NCBI RefSeq assembly: GCF_041925275.1
Contig: NZ_JBHEUZ010000014.1
Location: forward strand, 1-64,000
Direction: 5' to 3'
DNA length: 64,000 bases
From: Parapedobacter sp. 2B3
GTDB taxonomy: Bacteria; Bacteroidota; Bacteroidia; Sphingobacteriales; Sphingobacteriaceae
Position 1 is the stretch's first letter. Every line of letters begins with the position of its first letter. The position numbers were made by a program, and so were the translations under genes. Below are positions 3,723 to 28,437 of the stretch, one piece after another. The notes below the pieces were generated by a model. It was not told the origin of the DNA and ran no database searches. It saw only the letters and a list, made by a program, of their open reading frames with translations.

Positions 3723-5129
3723 TTACATATGGATGGCACGGTTATCTGTCGCAGCGAGCGATGCCTCGCGGAAAGCCTCCGTATAGGTGGGATGGGCATG
3801 GCAGATGCGGGCAATATCTTCGGCAGAGGCCCGGTATTCCATCGCCAGGGTGGCTTCGGCAATCATATCTGCGGCGCGGGGGCCGATCATATGTACGCCC
3901 AGCACTTCATCGGTGCTGGCGTCGGCTAGCACCTTTACGAAGCCATCCGTATCGCCGCTGGCTTTGGCACGGCCGCTGGCTTTGAAAGGGAATGACCCTG
4001 TTTTATAGGCGCGGCCGTCGGCTTTCAGTTGCTCTTCGGTTTTGCCTACGCTGGCTACTTCAGGCCAGGTGTATACAACGCCCGGAATGAGGTTGTAGTC
4101 GATGTGGGGCTGTTGGCCCGCAAGGCGCTCGGCTACGTATACCCCTTCGTCTTCGGCCTTATGGGCCAGCATGGCTCCCTTCACCACATCACCGATTGCA
4201 TATACTCCGGGTACGGATGTTTCAAGGTGTTCGTTTACGGGTATCTTCTTACCCCGTTCTTCCAGCGTGATGCCGATGTTTTCCAACCCCAACCCTTCGG
4301 TATAGGCTGTGCGGCCTACGGCAACGATGCAGTAGTCGCCTTCCCATGTAACGGCTTCGCCCTTTGCATTTTCCGCATTGACGGTTACCTTCTTCCCTTT
4401 GGCGGTGGCTCCGGTTACCTTGTGGCCCAAGTAGAACTCCATGCCAAGCGATTTCTTCAATATGCGCTGCAATTCCTTACCTAGTCCGCCATCCATGGTC
4501 GGGATGATGTTTTTCTCGTACTCCACCACAGACACCTTAGCGCCCAAACGTGCGTACACGGAACCCAGTTCGAGCCCGATGACCCCGCCCCCGATGATAA
4601 TCAGGTGTTTTGGTACCTCGGTCAGTGTCAGTGCCTCCGTAGAAGTGATGATCCGTTTTTTATCGATAGGGAGGAAAGGAAGGGCGGTGGGTTTGGACCC
4701 CGAAGCGATGACGATGTTCTTGCCAGTGATCTGCTCGGCCTTTCCTTCGGCCCCGGCTATTTTCACCGTATTTTTATCGACAAACGAGCCGATGCCCACG
4801 AAGCTGTCAATTTTATTCTTCTTGAACAGGAACGCGATCCCGGCAACGTTTTGCGTGATGACTTCATCTTTCCTGGCGATCATCTGCTTCATGTCTACCG
4901 CAAGGTTGCTAAGGTTGATACCATGCGCACCGAACTGGTGGGCAGCGTTATGGTAATGTTCGGAGGAGTCTAGCAACGCCTTTGAAGGGATGCATCCCAC
5001 GTTCAGGCAGGTGCCTCCAAACGTACTGTATTTCTCGATGATAGCCGTTTTCAAACCCAATTGTGCGCAACGGATGGCGGCTACGTATCCGCCGGGCCCG
5101 CTACCGATTATAATGACGTCGTACTGCAT
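3723..5129 (-). CDS. lpdA: Dihydrolipoyl dehydrogenase, paralog 2
   Basis: 468 aa; 'MQYDVIIIGSGPGGYVAAIRCAQLGLKTAIIEKYSTFGGTCLNVGCIPSKALL'; about 50% identical to paralog 1 by eye. Confidence 0.9.
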   Translation of the reverse strand: MQYDVIIIGSGPGGYVAAIRCAQLGLKTAIIEKYSTFGGTCLNVGCIPSKALLDSSEHYHNAAHQFGAHGINLSNLAVDMKQMIARKDEVITQNVAGIAFLFKKNKIDSFVGIGSFVDKNTVKIAGAEGKAEQITGKNIVIASGSKPTALPFLPIDKKRIITSTEALTLTEVPKHLIIIGGGVIGLELGSVYARLGAKVSVVEYEKNIIPTMDGGLGKELQRILKKSLGMEFYLGHKVTGATAKGKKVTVNAENAKGEAVTWEGDYCIVAVGRTAYTEGLGLENIGITLEERGKKIPVNEHLETSVPGVYAIGDVVKGAMLAHKAEDEGVYVAERLAGQQPHIDYNLIPGVVYTWPEVASVGKTEEQLKADGRAYKTGSFPFKASGRAKASGDTDGFVKVLADASTDEVLGVHMIGPRAADMIAEATLAMEYRASAEDIARICHAHPTYTEAFREASLAATDNRAIHM

Positions 5130-24340: not shown

Positions 24341-25117
24341 TCATCCTTTTTTCAGCTGTTGTATAAACGGCGCTATCTTCGCGTGGTAATCCGCGTTGCC
24401 CAGCAGTTTCACGAAAGCACTACCTACAATGGCGCCATCGGCGTGGTCGGTAGCATGTACGAACGTGTCGTGGTTGGAGATGCCAAATCCGATGACCGTC
24501 GGATTTTCGAGATCCATGGCCGCGATGCGGGAAAAGTAGCTTTCCGTATTTTCCGAAACCGCCAGGTTCTTGCCGGTAGTAGCCGACGAAGACAACAGGT
24601 ATATAAATCCGGTGGATAGGCCGTCAATTTTCCGGATCCGTTCTTCGGATGTCTGTGGTGTAACGAGGAAGATGTTGCTCAACCCATGGGTGTTAAATAC
24701 CGATCGGTAATGCGTTTCATACTCATACATGGGTAGGTCGGGTACAATGGCTCCGTCTACGCCAACAGATTGGCATGCTTTGCAGAAATCCTCCACGCCG
24801 TACTGCAGCACCGGATTCACGTATCCCATCAGCAATACGGGAATGCTGACCCGCTTGCGTAAATCTTTCAGTTGATCGAAAAGTACGTCCAATGTCATGC
24901 CGTTGCGCAGTGCAACTTCTGAGCTGTGCTGGATAACCGGTCCGTCGGCTACCGGGTCGGAATAGGGGAAACCGATTTCGAGGAAATCGGCACCTGCGTT
25001 TTCCAATGCTTCGGCGATGTCCAATGTGCTATCGAGCGTCGGGTAACCGGCGGTAAAATAAATGGAGAGGACGCGCCTGTCGCCTTTTTCGGCGAACAAA
25101 TTCTTGATGCGGTTCAT
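24341..25117 (-). CDS. trpA: Tryptophan synthase alpha subunit
   Basis: 'LSIYFTAGYP...ADFLEIGFPYSDPVADGPVIQ' canonical TrpA. Confidence 0.9.
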   Translation of the reverse strand: MNRIKNLFAEKGDRRVLSIYFTAGYPTLDSTLDIAEALENAGADFLEIGFPYSDPVADGPVIQHSSEVALRNGMTLDVLFDQLKDLRKRVSIPVLLMGYVNPVLQYGVEDFCKACQSVGVDGAIVPDLPMYEYETHYRSVFNTHGLSNIFLVTPQTSEERIRKIDGLSTGFIYLLSSSATTGKNLAVSENTESYFSRIAAMDLENPTVIGFGISNHDTFVHATDHADGAIVGSAFVKLLGNADYHAKIAPFIQQLKKG

Positions 25118-25120
25118 TGT

Positions 25121-26305
25121 TTAAAATCCAAAGTACTTCATGTAGTTGTCTAAATCCTTGTCGCCACGACCCGATAGGCATACCACCACGTTCTCGTTGG
25201 CTGCGAACGTCATTTTCTCCAGCTGGGCTAGCGCATGGGCGCTTTCGATGGCGGGGATGATGCCTTCCAGTCGGGTAAGCAGCAAGCCGGCCTGCATGGC
25301 CTCGTCGTCCGTGGCATTGACATAGGTTGCCCGGCCCGTTTTGTACAGCCAGGCATGCTGCGGTCCGATACCGGGGTAGTCGAGCCCGGCCGAGATGGAA
25401 TATGGCTCCACCACCTGGCCGTCATCGGTCTGCATCAGGATCGATCGACTGCCATGCAGTACGCCTTCGCGGCCGAGCACCGTAGTTGCAGCCGATTCGC
25501 CCGAGTCGACGCCTTTGCCAGCGGCTTCCACTGCCACGAGTTTCACCTGCGGGTCGTCTATGAAATGGTAAAACATGCCCGCGGCATTGCTGCCACCGCC
25601 TACGCACGCCAGGACGTAGTGCGGTGTTTCGCGACCTGTCTTTTCGAACAATTGCTTACGGGTTTCGGCAGAGATGATCGATTGGAAGCGGGCCACCATG
25701 TCCGGGTAGGGGTGGGGCCCCACCACCGAGCCGATGATATAGTGAGTATCCACGGGGTTGTTTATCCAGTCGCGCAGCGCCTCATTGGTGGCGTCTTTGA
25801 GCGTTTTGCTGCCCGACGTGGCCGCCACGACCTCGGCGCCCATCATTTTCATGCGTGCCACGTTGGGGGCCTGCCGCTCGATATCGATGGCACCCATGTA
25901 TACCACGCATTGCAGACCCTTGAGCGCACATACCGTAGCGGTGGCCACGCCGTGTTGGCCCGCGCCCGTTTCGGCAATGATGCGTTTCTTGCCCAGCCGC
26001 TCCGCGAGCAGGATCTGGCCGATCGTGTTATTGATCTTATGGGCACCGGTATGGTTGAGGTCTTCCCGTTTCAGGAAGATGTTGGCGCCGTATCGGTCAG
26101 AAAGCCGCTCCGCAGGGTACAGGGGCGACGGCCGGCCGACGTAATCGCGCAGCAATTGGCCAAATTCCCGTTGGAAATCATCGCTTTGGATGATGCTCAG
26201 GTATTGCTGCTGCAGTTCCTCCACATTGGGGTATAGCATTTCGGGGATATAGGCGCCGCCGAAATCGCCGTAATAGCCATTGTCGTTTACTTGGTATTTA
26301 CTCAT
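25121..26305 (-). CDS. trpB: Tryptophan synthase beta subunit
   Basis: 'GRPSPLY...HTGAHKINN' PLP-lysine motif; 394 aa. Confidence 0.95.
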
Positions 26306-26924
26306 CGTTGATGGTCTGTAACGTGTTTCTCAATAATGCAATGTCTTTGACGCCCGGTGCGGTCTCGAACCGTGAGTTCAGGTCCAACGCGTAGAGGCGG
26401 CTGTCGTCAAGCCGCAGTGCGTCTGCTATGTTTTCAGCACCGATGCCGCCACTCAGGAAAAAAGGCGTGTTGCCCGTATAGCCGGCAAGCAGCGTCCAGT
26501 CAAAACGTTTGCCGGTGCCGCCGTGTTGGGTGCTTTGTGTGTCGAAAAGGAAGTAATCCACGATCGTTTCATATCCCCTTACTATTGTCCAGTCGAATCG
26601 CTCATTGATGCCGAAGGCCTTGATGATTTCTACGCCGCAATCTGCCAGTGTTGCGCAGTATGCCGGAGCCTCAGCCCCATGCAACTGCACGGCTTGGAAA
26701 CCGTATCGCTGGATGGCTGTTTTCACTTCATGGATGGCCGCATCTACAAAAATACCTGTTTTTTTGGTGCCATGCAACCCCATTACCCAATCGGCATCAA
26801 GCTGGTCGATAAAACGCCTGGAGCCGGGGTAAAAAATGAGGCCGATGTAATCCGGTTGCAAGGCGATAACCTCCCGGATGTTATCGGGTTGTTTTAAGCC
26901 ACATATTTTTATTTTTGGATTCAT
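26298..26924 (-). CDS. trpF: Phosphoribosylanthranilate isomerase
   Basis: '[16 protein letters not shown]...[13 protein letters not shown]'; 8-nt overlap with trpB. Confidence 0.85.
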
Positions 26925-27013
26925 TTGATCGTGCACGCAGAGTTCGCTAAGTTCTTCGCAAAGCACGCGAAGGGACTTTTTTAGACCCCACGTCTTTGCG
27001 CGAAATGAAAGAA

Positions 27014-28003
27014 TTAACCATCTATTAATTTTTTAAAACTTTCTAGAGCCTTCTTGCCCAGCAATGATGCTTCGGCTTCGTAGTAGCAGTCGCCAAAACT
27101 CTTTTCCGGATGGATGGTCTGTATGGCAACGGCTGCGTTGGCAAGGACCACATTGTTTTGTTCCGACGTGCCTTCGCCATGGAGTACCGTCGCGAAAATA
27201 CGGGCCGCCTCCTCCACGGTTTCCCCACCGTGGATACGATCTGCCGATATGGGTGTAAAGCCCAGCTGCTCGATGCTGTGGATATGTTCCCCTTCATTGC
27301 TGATGGTCTTGAAATCGCCTGTCAGGGACACTTCGTCGTACCCGTCCAGCGCGTGGAGGATGGTGTATCGCTTGTCCGTTTGTTGGTACAGGTAGCCATA
27401 GAGCCGCGCCAATTCCAGGCTGAATACCCCGACGGATTGGTAGTGGGGGTTGGTGGGGTTTACCAACGGGCCGATCATGTTGAAAAAGGTCTTTACACCC
27501 AGTTCGCGGCGGATGGGCGCTACCGTTTTCATGGCCGGATGGAAAAGCGGCGCATGGAGGAAGCAGATGTTTGCTTGCTCCAATTGGCGGCTGATGGTTT
27601 CCTTGTCATTGGTGAACCGGTAACCGAGGTATTCCATCACGTTTGACGACCCGCAGCCGGATGACACGCCATAATTGCCGTGTTTGGCTACGGGGTAGGC
27701 TGCTCCAGCCACTACGAAGGAGGCGAGGGTGGAAATGTTGAAGGTGTTTTTGCCATCACCCCCCGTACCGCAGAGGTCGATGAGTTTATAACCCGGAAAC
27801 TCCAATTGGAGGCACAGGTCGTACATTGCATCGCGGAAACCTTCCAGCTCTTCCACGCGGATGCTCCGCATGCCATAGGCCGTCATGAATGCGGCGATTT
27901 GGGAGTTGTTGTATTTCCCCGAAGCGATGTTAGTCAATATCTCATATGCTTCACGCTGCGTGAAGGTTTTGTATTCGAAGAGGTGCGTTAATATTTTTTT
28001 CAT
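27014..28003 (-). CDS. trpD: Anthranilate phosphoribosyltransferase
   Basis: 'IDLCGTGGDGKNTFNIST' glycine-rich PRPP loop; 329 aa. Confidence 0.9.
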   Translation of the reverse strand: MKKILTHLFEYKTFTQREAYEILTNIASGKYNNSQIAAFMTAYGMRSIRVEELEGFRDAMYDLCLQLEFPGYKLIDLCGTGGDGKNTFNISTLASFVVAGAAYPVAKHGNYGVSSGCGSSNVMEYLGYRFTNDKETISRQLEQANICFLHAPLFHPAMKTVAPIRRELGVKTFFNMIGPLVNPTNPHYQSVGVFSLELARLYGYLYQQTDKRYTILHALDGYDEVSLTGDFKTISNEGEHIHSIEQLGFTPISADRIHGGETVEEAARIFATVLHGEGTSEQNNVVLANAAVAIQTIHPEKSFGDCYYEAEASLLGKKALESFKKLIDG

Positions 28004-28022
28004 CTAATTATTTTTCTTTATC

Positions 28023-28180
28023 GGCTGATGAGAGCTCGATGTAAACAATGATTGCCCTGTGTGTCAATATTATTTACATCTCGGTTTCATCTACGTATTT
28101 TTTCCTCAATGGCTGATGAGAGCTTAATGTAAATAATCACGCCACGCTGTGTCGATGCTATTTACCTCTCGGTTTCATCT
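28023..28180 (-). repeat. Two imperfect 70-nt direct repeats (period 88 nt), each containing a 7-8 bp stem hairpin (gatgtaaa...tttacatc), in the trp leader region between attenuator and trpD
   Basis: Units at 28023-28092 and 28111-28180; identical 5' (ggctgatgagagct) and 3' (ctctcggtttcatct) ends, variable centre. Confidence 0.6.
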
Positions 28181-28192
28181 CGTCAGTATCCA

Positions 28193-28224
28193 ATAAAAAA
28201 GGCTTGCCGGTGATGGGCAAGCCG
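28193..28224 (-). terminator. trp attenuator: intrinsic terminator (ggcttgcc / ggcaagcc, 7-nt loop, U6 tail on minus strand)
   Basis: + strand aataaaaaaggcttgccggtgatgggcaagccg; the minus-strand transcript reads CGGCUUGCCCAUCACCGGCAAGCCUUUUUUAUU. Confidence 0.6.
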
Positions 28225-28271
28225 CTATACAGTTCAGTAACTATTACTTACATAGGAGGTTGCCACAGCGT

Positions 28272-28319
28272 TAAATGCTATGCCACCACCAAGTAATATG
28301 TCCACTTGTAACGTTCATT
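28272..28319 (-). CDS. trpL: trp operon leader peptide MNVTSGHITWWWHSI (three tandem Trp codons)
   Basis: Reverse complement of 28272-28319 = ATGAACGTTACAAGTGGACATATTACTTGGTGGTGGCATAGCATTTAA; lies within ORF-track entry 28271..28468 (-), so a longer N-terminus is possible. Confidence 0.55.
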
Positions 28320-28401
28320 TCTGTTGTGCGACAAATATGGGTTTTTGTTTTGAAAGATGCAAGATGTCGCGTCGTATTTTTATGGGGTTTGTTTAACAAA
28401 A

Positions 28402-28437
28402 CCGCCCCGCACGATGAGTGCGGGGCGGCTATTTTGT
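28402..28437 (-). terminator. GC-rich hairpin terminator (ccgccccgcac/gtgcggggcgg) after the DUF2795 gene; T/A-rich on both sides
   Basis: aaaaccgccccgcacgatgagtgcggggcggctattttgt. Confidence 0.5.

Follow-up and report, generated by a model that had tools for sequence, protein, structure and literature searches.

A short open reading frame (ORF) with three consecutive Trp codons, followed by a hairpin and a run of U residues, lies upstream of the tryptophan biosynthesis genes in a Parapedobacter genome. We have asked whether this arrangement is a ribosome-mediated transcription attenuator, as the first-pass annotation of the DNA had proposed, and what accounts for the long interval that separates the hairpin from trpD, the first structural gene. 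The window referred to throughout is the whole stretch of DNA analyzed, 64 kb in length, and the features described here are encoded on its minus strand. The window was compared with orthologous loci of Parapedobacter and Sphingobacterium, with Rfam and with metagenome and plasmid collections.

The trp genes and the comparative data set

Four trp genes were identified by matches to NCBIfam models: trpD (28003-27014; TIGR01245, 293.7 bits), trpF (26966-26298; NF002295), trpB (26305-25121; TIGR00263) and trpA (25117-24341; TIGR00262). The series trpD-trpF-trpB-trpA (24341-28003, minus strand) is best explained as the set of genes under attenuator control. The gene upstream is an ORF of 73 amino acids that ends at 28437. 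A terminator scan gives this ORF a strong hairpin of its own at 28428-28402, and thus the hairpin that begins at 28223 is not merely the terminator of the upstream ORF. When species-representative genomes were scanned with TrpD as the query, 80 loci were obtained, all from Parapedobacter and Sphingobacterium, in which TrpD is up to 93% identical to that of the window in the former genus and 74-79% identical in the latter. Seventy-eight distinct leaders are represented in the alignment on which the structural comparisons are based (alignment A1).

The leader mini-ORF

The leader mini-ORF (28318-28271, minus strand) consists of 15 codons and a TAA stop (ATG AAC GTT ACA AGT GGA CAT ATT ACT TGG TGG TGG CAT AGC ATT TAA) and encodes MNVTSGHITWWWHSI. 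Its Trp codons are at 28291-28283 and its stop codon at 28273-28271. The ORF, the peptide and the three Trp codons are those of the first-pass annotation, with the correction that the ATG is at 28318 and not at 28319. The sequence TGGTGGTGG is found at just two sites when both strands of the 64-kb window are searched, and the second site (approximately 20206-20198) falls within the coordinates of a long ORF. No Shine-Dalgarno sequence precedes the mini-ORF.

Conservation of a WW(W) mini-ORF near trpD orthologs had been suggested as a check on the attenuator, and the mini-ORF is indeed retained at every Parapedobacter and Sphingobacterium locus: all 80 have an ATG-started mini-ORF with WW no more than 250 nt upstream of trpD. 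By chance, an ORF of at most 24 codons containing WW occurs in 4.4% of random 603-nt stretches from the same loci. The mini-ORF is exactly 15 codons long in 76 of the 80 loci. Its Trp run is WWW in 72 loci and WW in the other 8, and the first Trp of the run is codon 10 in 72 loci and codon 11 in 8. The N-terminal codons are free to vary, and 61 distinct peptides are encoded among the 80 loci. Preservation of length, frame and Trp position, but not of the N-terminal residues, is the signature of a sensor ORF and not of a functional peptide.

Promoter motif and probable transcription start

Promoters of Bacteroidota have a -33/-7 consensus of TTTG / TAnnTTTG, as in Bacteroides and Flavobacterium; the sigma-70 consensus is not known to be used in this phylum. 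Sigma-70-type promoter matches were set aside for this reason, and the pattern TTG-N17-23-AnnTTTG was used for the promoter scan instead. A promoter-like motif of the Bacteroidota type, TTGCATCTTTCAAAACAAAAACCCATATTTG (TTG-N-AnnTTTG; 28332-28362, minus strand), ends 13 nt before the mini-ORF ATG. A match to the scan pattern ends 10-20 nt before this ATG in 77 of the 78 distinct leaders, compared with 2% of random 70-mers. Judging from the motif, transcription likely starts about 10 nt upstream of the leader ORF. The position of the motif just before the ATG places the likely start site upstream of the mini-ORF; a start downstream of it had been named in the first-pass annotation as an observation that would speak against attenuation.

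The terminator

An intrinsic terminator is present between the leader ORF and trpD (28193-28223, minus strand), as identified by a terminator scan and the alignment of 78 leaders. The RNA consists of GGCUUGCC-CAUCACC-GGCAAGCC followed by UUUUUUAU; the corresponding DNA is GGCTTGCC-CATCACC-GGCAAGCC at 28223-28201, then TTTTTTAT down to 28193. The stem has 8 perfect pairs, 6 of which are G-C, and it begins 47 nt past the mini-ORF stop. A perfect hairpin with a U-run had been described about 50 nt downstream of the ORF, which agrees with this structure except that the leading C, quoted as a ninth base of the stem, is unpaired.

Among the 78 leaders the terminator helix is paired in 99.6% of cells. 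The 5' arm GCUUGCC is invariant but for one column, where a C in two leaders is matched by a G on the opposite strand. Three columns of the 3' arm vary, giving the forms GGCAAGCC, GGCAGGCC, GGCGAGCC, GGUAAGCC and GGUGAGCC, and nearly all of this variation produces G-U wobble pairs. A nearly invariant 5' arm opposite a drifting 3' arm is expected where the 5' strand has two partners.

The 1:2 hairpin

The RNAalifold consensus of alignment A1 yields two helices. The 1:2 hairpin, or anti-antiterminator (28252-28291, minus strand), pairs positions 28291-28277 with GCUGUGGCAA..CC at 28269-28252. It joins the last Trp codon and the following His/Asn(Ser) codons to the segment just past the stop codon, and the stop codon itself lies in the loop. 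In the window the stem is CAUAGC/GCUGUG, extended by UG:CA and GG:CC pairs with the Trp codons. In alignment A1 the hairpin occupies columns 42-57 with 64-80, of which columns 47-57 with 64-73 make up the main stem; the main stem is paired in 94.6% of cells and shows compensatory change at 5 pairs. The termination conformer as a whole, the 1:2 hairpin together with the terminator, is paired in 96.6% of cells, compared with 26-51% when the partners are slid. Seven of its pairs have changed on both sides, in 43 cells, and none of 500 column shuffles reached the observed covariation score.

The predicted antiterminator and the position of the ribosome

The nearly invariant GUGGCAA that follows the stop codon, together with a conserved CCUAU slightly farther along, has its complement in AUAG-(N)-GG(G)CUUGCC, which comprises the 5' arm of the terminator and the bases that precede it. 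The predicted antiterminator of the window (28216-28264, minus strand), obtained by masked-ribosome folding, pairs GGCAACCUCCUAU at 28264-28252 with AUAG-C-GGCUUGCC at 28228-28216. It uses the terminator 5' arm and encloses a small hairpin, AGUAAU/AGUUACU. The pairing of GGCAACCUCCUAU with AUAGCGGCUUGCC consists of 5 bp, a C-C mismatch, a C-G and a U-G pair, a second mismatch and 4 bp. The first-pass annotation had noted that the segment UGUGGCAACC could pair with the 5' half of the terminator; this segment is the 5' strand of the longer antiterminator predicted here. Twelve antiterminator pairs are formed in 87.8% of the cells of alignment A1, as against 31-50% with slid partners. No compensatory changes were found for this helix in A1, and its score is not above that of the shuffles, because its columns are nearly invariant. 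The antiterminator is a prediction from conservation and energy models.

The effect of the ribosome was modeled with ViennaRNA by keeping the leader single-stranded over a stretch that extends 12 nt beyond the A-site codon, and the transcript was folded as far as the terminator loop, which represents the state before the 3' arm emerges. With the ribosome at the middle Trp codon, the terminator 5' arm is predicted to pair with region 2 in all 78 leaders (median -14.25 kcal/mol); when region 2 is shuffled, this pairing is found in 34% (median -10.2 kcal/mol). A ribosome placed at the stop codon is predicted to leave the 5' arm free in 61 of the 78 leaders (median -6.15 kcal/mol). For the window, the predicted structure of the stalled state is the GGCAACCUCCUAU/AUAGCGGCUUGCC helix, at -12.8 kcal/mol. 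A search by RNA folding for mutually exclusive structures had been suggested as a check; in these models the antiterminator is predicted with the ribosome at the Trp codons and largely disappears with the ribosome at the stop codon. When the full-length RNA is folded at equilibrium, the terminator is preferred in every state, including the stalled one (-21.1 kcal/mol); thus the choice of read-through must be kinetic, as in E. coli trpL.

In the untranslated, truncated RNA of the window and of some close Parapedobacter relatives, the short hairpin and the antiterminator can coexist, and the state without a ribosome is predicted to be less clear-cut in these leaders than in those of Sphingobacterium. 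In the window this coexistence is helped by a pairing of GGUGGUGG, in the Trp codons, with CCAUCACC, in the terminator loop and 3' arm. This pairing is specific to the window and was rejected as a conserved feature, since the loop (columns 132-141) lacks conservation among the relatives, and it is not counted as part of the mechanism.

Proposed mechanism and alternatives

The locus is very probably a classical ribosome-mediated transcription attenuator of the Parapedobacter trpDFBA operon, homologous to the Bacteroid-trp leader of Rfam. This is also the reading of the first-pass annotation, and the mini-ORF, the promoter motif upstream of it, the terminator and the covarying hairpin all argue for it at the level of sequence. 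The leader has the conserved features of such a system, with covariation in the 1:2 and 3:4 helices and the potential for 2:3 pairing; we infer that the mini-ORF is translated and that the operon responds to Trp.

In the proposed mechanism, segment 1 would be the UGG run with CAU/AGC, segment 2 GCUGUGGCAACCUCCUAU, segment 3 AUAGCGGCUUGCC and segment 4 GGCAAGCC with the U-run. When charged tRNA-Trp is plentiful, the ribosome would reach the stop codon and cover GCUGUGGCAA; when no ribosome is present, GCUGUGGCAA would be locked in the 1:2 hairpin with the Trp/His codons. With GCUGUGGCAA covered or held in either way, the GGCUUGCC/GGCAAGCC-U6 terminator (3:4) would form and transcription would stop before trpD. 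When tRNA-Trp is scarce, a ribosome stalled on UGG-UGG-UGG would mask the 5' half of the 1:2 hairpin and free GGCAACCUCCUAU, which could then pair with AUAGCGGCUUGCC as the 2:3 antiterminator and allow RNA polymerase to read through.

The Trp codons could instead be an RNA signal, with the terminator controlled by a TRAP-like protein bound to the UGG triplets, by uncharged tRNA or by a small RNA, and with the ORF incidental. The UGG run and the CAC/AAC codons do lie in a covarying hairpin, and RNA structure alone could maintain some of this sequence. An element acting as RNA only would need neither the frame nor the ATG, the 15-codon length and the in-frame stop in the loop, all of which are kept in 76 of the 80 loci. 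TRAP requires 9-11 spaced (G/U)AG triplets, and there are just three contiguous UGG triplets here; moreover, no T-box or other Rfam family was matched in the region. We consider control of this kind improbable.

There is even less to suggest that the attenuator has become uncoupled from trpD in this genome by the 176-nt tandem insertion described below, through a promoter brought in by the insertion or in some other manner. The insertion is missing in nearly all relatives, and a sigma-70-like sequence, TCGACA-18-TACATT, lies inside its first copy (copy A). This consensus is, however, not known to be used by Bacteroidota, and the pattern TTG-N17-23-AnnTTTG is absent throughout 28192-28004. The leader itself is intact, with conservation equal to that in the relatives that are free of the insertion, and the start region of trpD is unpaired in the predicted fold. 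Uncoupling is therefore judged very unlikely.

Least probable of all is that the leader peptide acts like TnaC, as a nascent-chain sensor of free tryptophan that would halt translation where the ORF ends and so govern termination: the C-terminal WWWH with two further residues and a stop is strongly conserved and the stop codon lies within a structured loop, but arrest by free Trp would turn a biosynthetic operon on at high Trp, the reverse of what such an operon requires, pairing with GUUGUG and covariation at those columns account for the His/Asn codons, and a ribosome held at the stop codon is predicted to mask the antiterminator strand and so to favor termination. The conservation of frame, length and stop position, but not of the peptide, disfavors this sensor as well as control by a factor alone. 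Attenuation by a ribosome translating the mini-ORF is thus the reading that we retain.

Relationship to known trp leaders

The Bacteroid-trp family of Rfam (RF01692, Bacteroidete tryptophan peptide leader RNA) comes from the work of Weinberg et al. (2010, PMC2864571), where it is listed among the motifs of Bacteroidetes that are likely to be cis-regulatory without being riboswitches. Its covariance model aligns over its full length (1-131) to positions 28335-28216 of the window, with UGGUGGUGG and GGCUUGCC in register. The match has a score of 21.0 bits, below the gathering threshold of 49 bits (E = 9.1 in a search of 501 nt at E<=10), and RF01692 was absent from the results when 16 kb were scanned against Rfam at E<=1. 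The threshold is passed, with 49.0-54.5 bits, by 10 of the 32 orthologous loci scanned (L041, L044, L045, L057, L060, L063, L066, L071, L072 and L078). All ten are from Sphingobacterium, and no Parapedobacter locus among those scanned scored above the threshold. The leader of the window aligns column by column with the leaders that pass (alignment A1), and with a score below the threshold, the homology rests on orthology and this alignment and not on the model score. By these sequence comparisons, the leader is a divergent homolog of the known family RF01692 that is missed by the curated model.

The window and RF01692 have in common the phylum and the position before trp biosynthesis genes, here upstream of trpD-trpF-trpB-trpA. 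In both, the UGG run of a short ORF forms part of the 5' arm of a long hairpin, which is the same hairpin as 1:2 here, and the end of the model, GGCUUGYC, is the 5' arm of the terminator. They differ in that the window has a hairpin whose inner portion is shorter and of other sequence, and in that Rfam marks a single hairpin, the antiterminator proposed here being absent from the model.

The trp leader of E. coli (trpL; RF00513, Trp_leader) is the basis of Yanofsky's four-segment model, in which termination is the default in the absence of translation. The leader of the window resembles it in having Trp codons in segment 1, predicted alternative 1:2, 2:3 and 3:4 pairings with an intrinsic terminator as 3:4, and a peptide of 14-15 codons, and the proposed mechanism likewise has termination as its default without translation. 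It differs in having three Trp codons where E. coli has two, a stop codon in the hairpin loop, a promoter of the Bacteroidota type, no Shine-Dalgarno sequence and an operon that starts at trpD instead of trpE. The two share no sequence similarity, and RF00513 was not matched by the leader in the Rfam scan at E<=10.

The idea of attenuation in Bacteroidota is not new; candidate leader-peptide attenuators in Bacteroidetes were reportedly described by Vitreschak and colleagues in 2004, in a paper (FEMS Microbiol Lett 234:357) that appears among the references of PMC1262725. The remark of the first-pass annotation that trp attenuation in this phylum is little studied experimentally agrees with our search of the literature, which found no experimental work on leaders of the RF01692 type. 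Several other Rfam matches were rejected. The RAGATH-1 hammerhead match over the repeat junction near trpD scored 16.8 bits against a cutoff of 56.3, and the CUGAUGA core is missing on that strand. Matches at E<=10 to ClpQY_promoter, Arrc14 and other sRNAs reflect just a generic resemblance to terminator hairpins.

A tandem insertion at the trpD start codon

The mini-ORF had been placed 270 nt upstream of trpD. The order is correct and the distance from its stop codon to the trpD ATG is 267 nt, but this gap cannot be taken as a part of the attenuator, as approximately 176 nt of it are an inserted repeat. From the terminator hairpin to the trpD ATG there are 198 nt in the window, the longest such distance of all, compared with a median of about 24 nt in the relatives. 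The insertion consists of two 88-nt hairpin elements in tandem, 78% identical to each other. Copy A (28093-28180, minus strand) is the older and more diverged; it begins AGATGAAACCGAG and contains a 6-codon ORF, MKPRGK-stop. Copy B (28005-28092, minus strand) contains the ORF MKPRCK-stop, and its A-rich tail lies directly against the trpD ATG. An internal hairpin of the 16-bp class, GAUGUAAAUAAUAUUG/CAAUCAUUGUUUACAUC, is present in both. Both units begin with AGATGAAACCGAG and are followed by AGATGAAA, which after copy A is the start of copy B and after copy B is trpD's own AGATGAAAAAAATA.

Close relatives (L003, L004 and L012) have the empty site, ...GACGAT-ATGAAA-AAAATA. The filled site of the window is ...GACGAG-ATGAAA-[copy A]-ATGAAA-[copy B]-ATGAAA-AAAATA. 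Comparison of the two shows that the element coincides precisely with the start codon of trpD and is bordered by an ATGAAA repeat at either end. The former ATG has become the start of MKPRCK-stop or MKPRGK-stop, in or beside the hairpin, and the real start of trpD is in an A-rich stretch that is unpaired in the predicted fold. Initiation regions of Bacteroidota are A-rich and independent of Shine-Dalgarno sequences, which the predicted unpaired start suits. The greater divergence of copy A is consistent with insertion in two steps, in which the start codon rebuilt by the first element became the target of the next. Neither a promoter motif of the Bacteroidota type nor a terminator-like U-run is found in the insert, and it is thus expected to be a passive passenger on the read-through transcript.

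A diverged copy is present at the same trpD site in locus L010 (nhmmer E = 0.0025), and L001 has a 3' remnant of a copy of the L010 type. These copies may reflect either recurrent targeting of the trpD start codon or an old insertion that has since been lost precisely and more than once.

Distribution and nature of the element

No match to the 88-nt element was obtained by blastn among the 80 genome loci, and an nhmmer search of approximately 1.2 Mb of these loci, flanks included, found the weak copy in L010 and no further ones; the density of copies is thus low. A metagenome collection was scanned with a 20-base pattern drawn from both ends of the hairpin region, including the left ATGAAAC, and the matches were examined by blastn. 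Of 65 pattern matches, 38 were unrelated by blastn and were discarded; in so large a collection, a pattern of 20 bases is expected to find some matches by chance. The other 27 loci, representing 23 distinct sites, have full-length copies that are 80-95% identical to copy B. None of these 27 copies is near trpD, and their neighboring genes are unrelated to each other. G+C is 38-49% in the metagenome host contigs and 51% in the window. The plasmid collection contained no match to the element, no Rfam family matched it at E<=10, and nothing relevant to a start-codon-targeting repeat in Bacteroidota was found in the literature.

Every copy examined has the same orientation, lies exactly on an ATG-AAA start codon and restores that start; since the left ATGAAAC was part of the search pattern, the left repeat is an unbiased observation in the window and L010 alone, the only copies independent of that pattern. 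The right-hand flank was outside the pattern, and there (A)GATGA follows the element in all 27 loci and is invariant in their alignment (A2). In most of the metagenome loci the downstream ATG opens a real gene. Pfam domains that begin at residues 1-5 of the product are those of GDP-mannose dehydratase, threonine synthase, universal stress protein and FAA hydrolase, and other genes begun at the element encode a GH10 xylanase, a peptidase S58, a CBS protein and CcmE. The inverted repeat of the element is internal (A2 columns 27-46 with 59-76), and the A-rich tail beyond it is not palindromic. Covariation in this hairpin is weak, with 5 compensated cells, a count that 37 of 500 shuffles reach.

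The element resembles MITEs, REP/BIME, Correia and Rickettsia palindromic elements in being short and hairpin-forming, in encoding no protein and in being dispersed in copies of 80-95% identity. As in MITEs, it has a flanking direct repeat (ATGAAA) and both filled and empty sites among close relatives. Unlike those of MITEs, its inverted repeat is internal and not terminal, and its 3' end is an A-rich tail. We know of no described mobile element with an ATG-AAA start codon as its target. Tentatively, and at somewhat less than even chances, the element may be an undescribed kind of small mobile DNA with a preference for translation start sites as its target, a cassette of about 82 nt with a hairpin and an A-rich tail at ATG-AAA. 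Insertion would leave the old ATG as a 6-codon decoy ORF (MKPRCK-stop) buried in the hairpin and would give the host gene a new ATG-AAA within a rebuilt initiation region that is A-rich and free of structure.

Significance

The trp leader is real but ordinary, with a textbook mechanism and membership in a family that is already described. Its analysis extends RF01692, a family defined by computation, to Parapedobacter, where the Rfam model misses the leader, and offers an explicit predicted antiterminator and a model of ribosome position, both absent from the Rfam entry and supported by 78 orthologous leaders. The inserted element is more novel than the attenuator, and this by-product of the analysis may matter more. 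If it is mobile and directed to start codons, it would represent a new target specificity for bacterial mobile DNA. An insertion that rebuilds the start would, if this is true, be a natural case of an insertion repairing the gene that it interrupts, and such an element could spread through the 5' ends of essential genes without killing them, as it would have done twice at trpD. In this operon the element might also add a layer of translational control downstream of the attenuator.

Organization of the operon and its leader

The attenuated operon comprises trpD-trpF-trpB-trpA (24341-28003, minus strand), with trpD as its first gene; trpE, trpG and trpC are absent between the leader and trpA. 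The leader also directly precedes trpD in all 80 orthologous loci from Parapedobacter and Sphingobacterium (L001-L080). Within 28201-28291 (minus strand), in the window genome and its close relatives, the Trp codons, GGUGGUGG, are complementary to CCAUCACC in the terminator loop and 3' arm over eight pairs, one of them G-U, and this complementarity gives the untranslated RNA an additional predicted long-range pairing. The pairing is not conserved in Sphingobacterium.

A strong G+C-rich hairpin of 11 bp, CCGCCCCGCAC-GATGA-GTGCGGGGCGG, lies at 28402-28428, directly after the end of a 73-aa ORF (28658-28437). Since a T-rich run borders it on each strand, it resembles a bidirectional terminator. 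An Rfam match to ClpQY_promoter (27.9 bits against a cutoff of 42) is spurious and is explained by this hairpin.

A hairpin element at start codons

A hairpin element of ~88 nt is present twice in tandem at 28005-28180 (minus strand), its insertion point coinciding exactly with the start codon of trpD and an ATGAAA direct repeat flanking it on either side. The element rebuilds an A-rich start region and opens a decoy ORF of six codons (MKPRCK, then stop). Searches of Rfam and the literature found no family or publication describing it.

The spacer between the trp terminator and trpD is also long (75-113 nt) in several Sphingobacterium relatives (L023:~3890-4000, L027:~3910-4000, L061:~3910-4000, L079 and L069), where it contains hairpin-forming inserts of its own, such as AAATCGAGCG...GCTCGCTCATTGAAAA in L061. 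Their layout is superficially similar to that of the ~88-nt element (CGAG...CTC..TCAT), but its nhmmer profile does not detect them.

Among the orthologous trpD loci, a diverged copy of the element is present at L010:3900-4005 and a remnant at L001:~3950-4000. Further copies, 80-95% identical and always in the same orientation, were found in 27 metagenome loci, where they coincide with the ATG-AAA starts of unrelated genes; these loci had been selected by an end pattern that included a left ATGAAAC (L082, L084, L092, L096, L097, L099, L101, L102, L104, L105, L107-L109, L115-L118, L122, L124, L132-L135, L137, L138, L141, L143).
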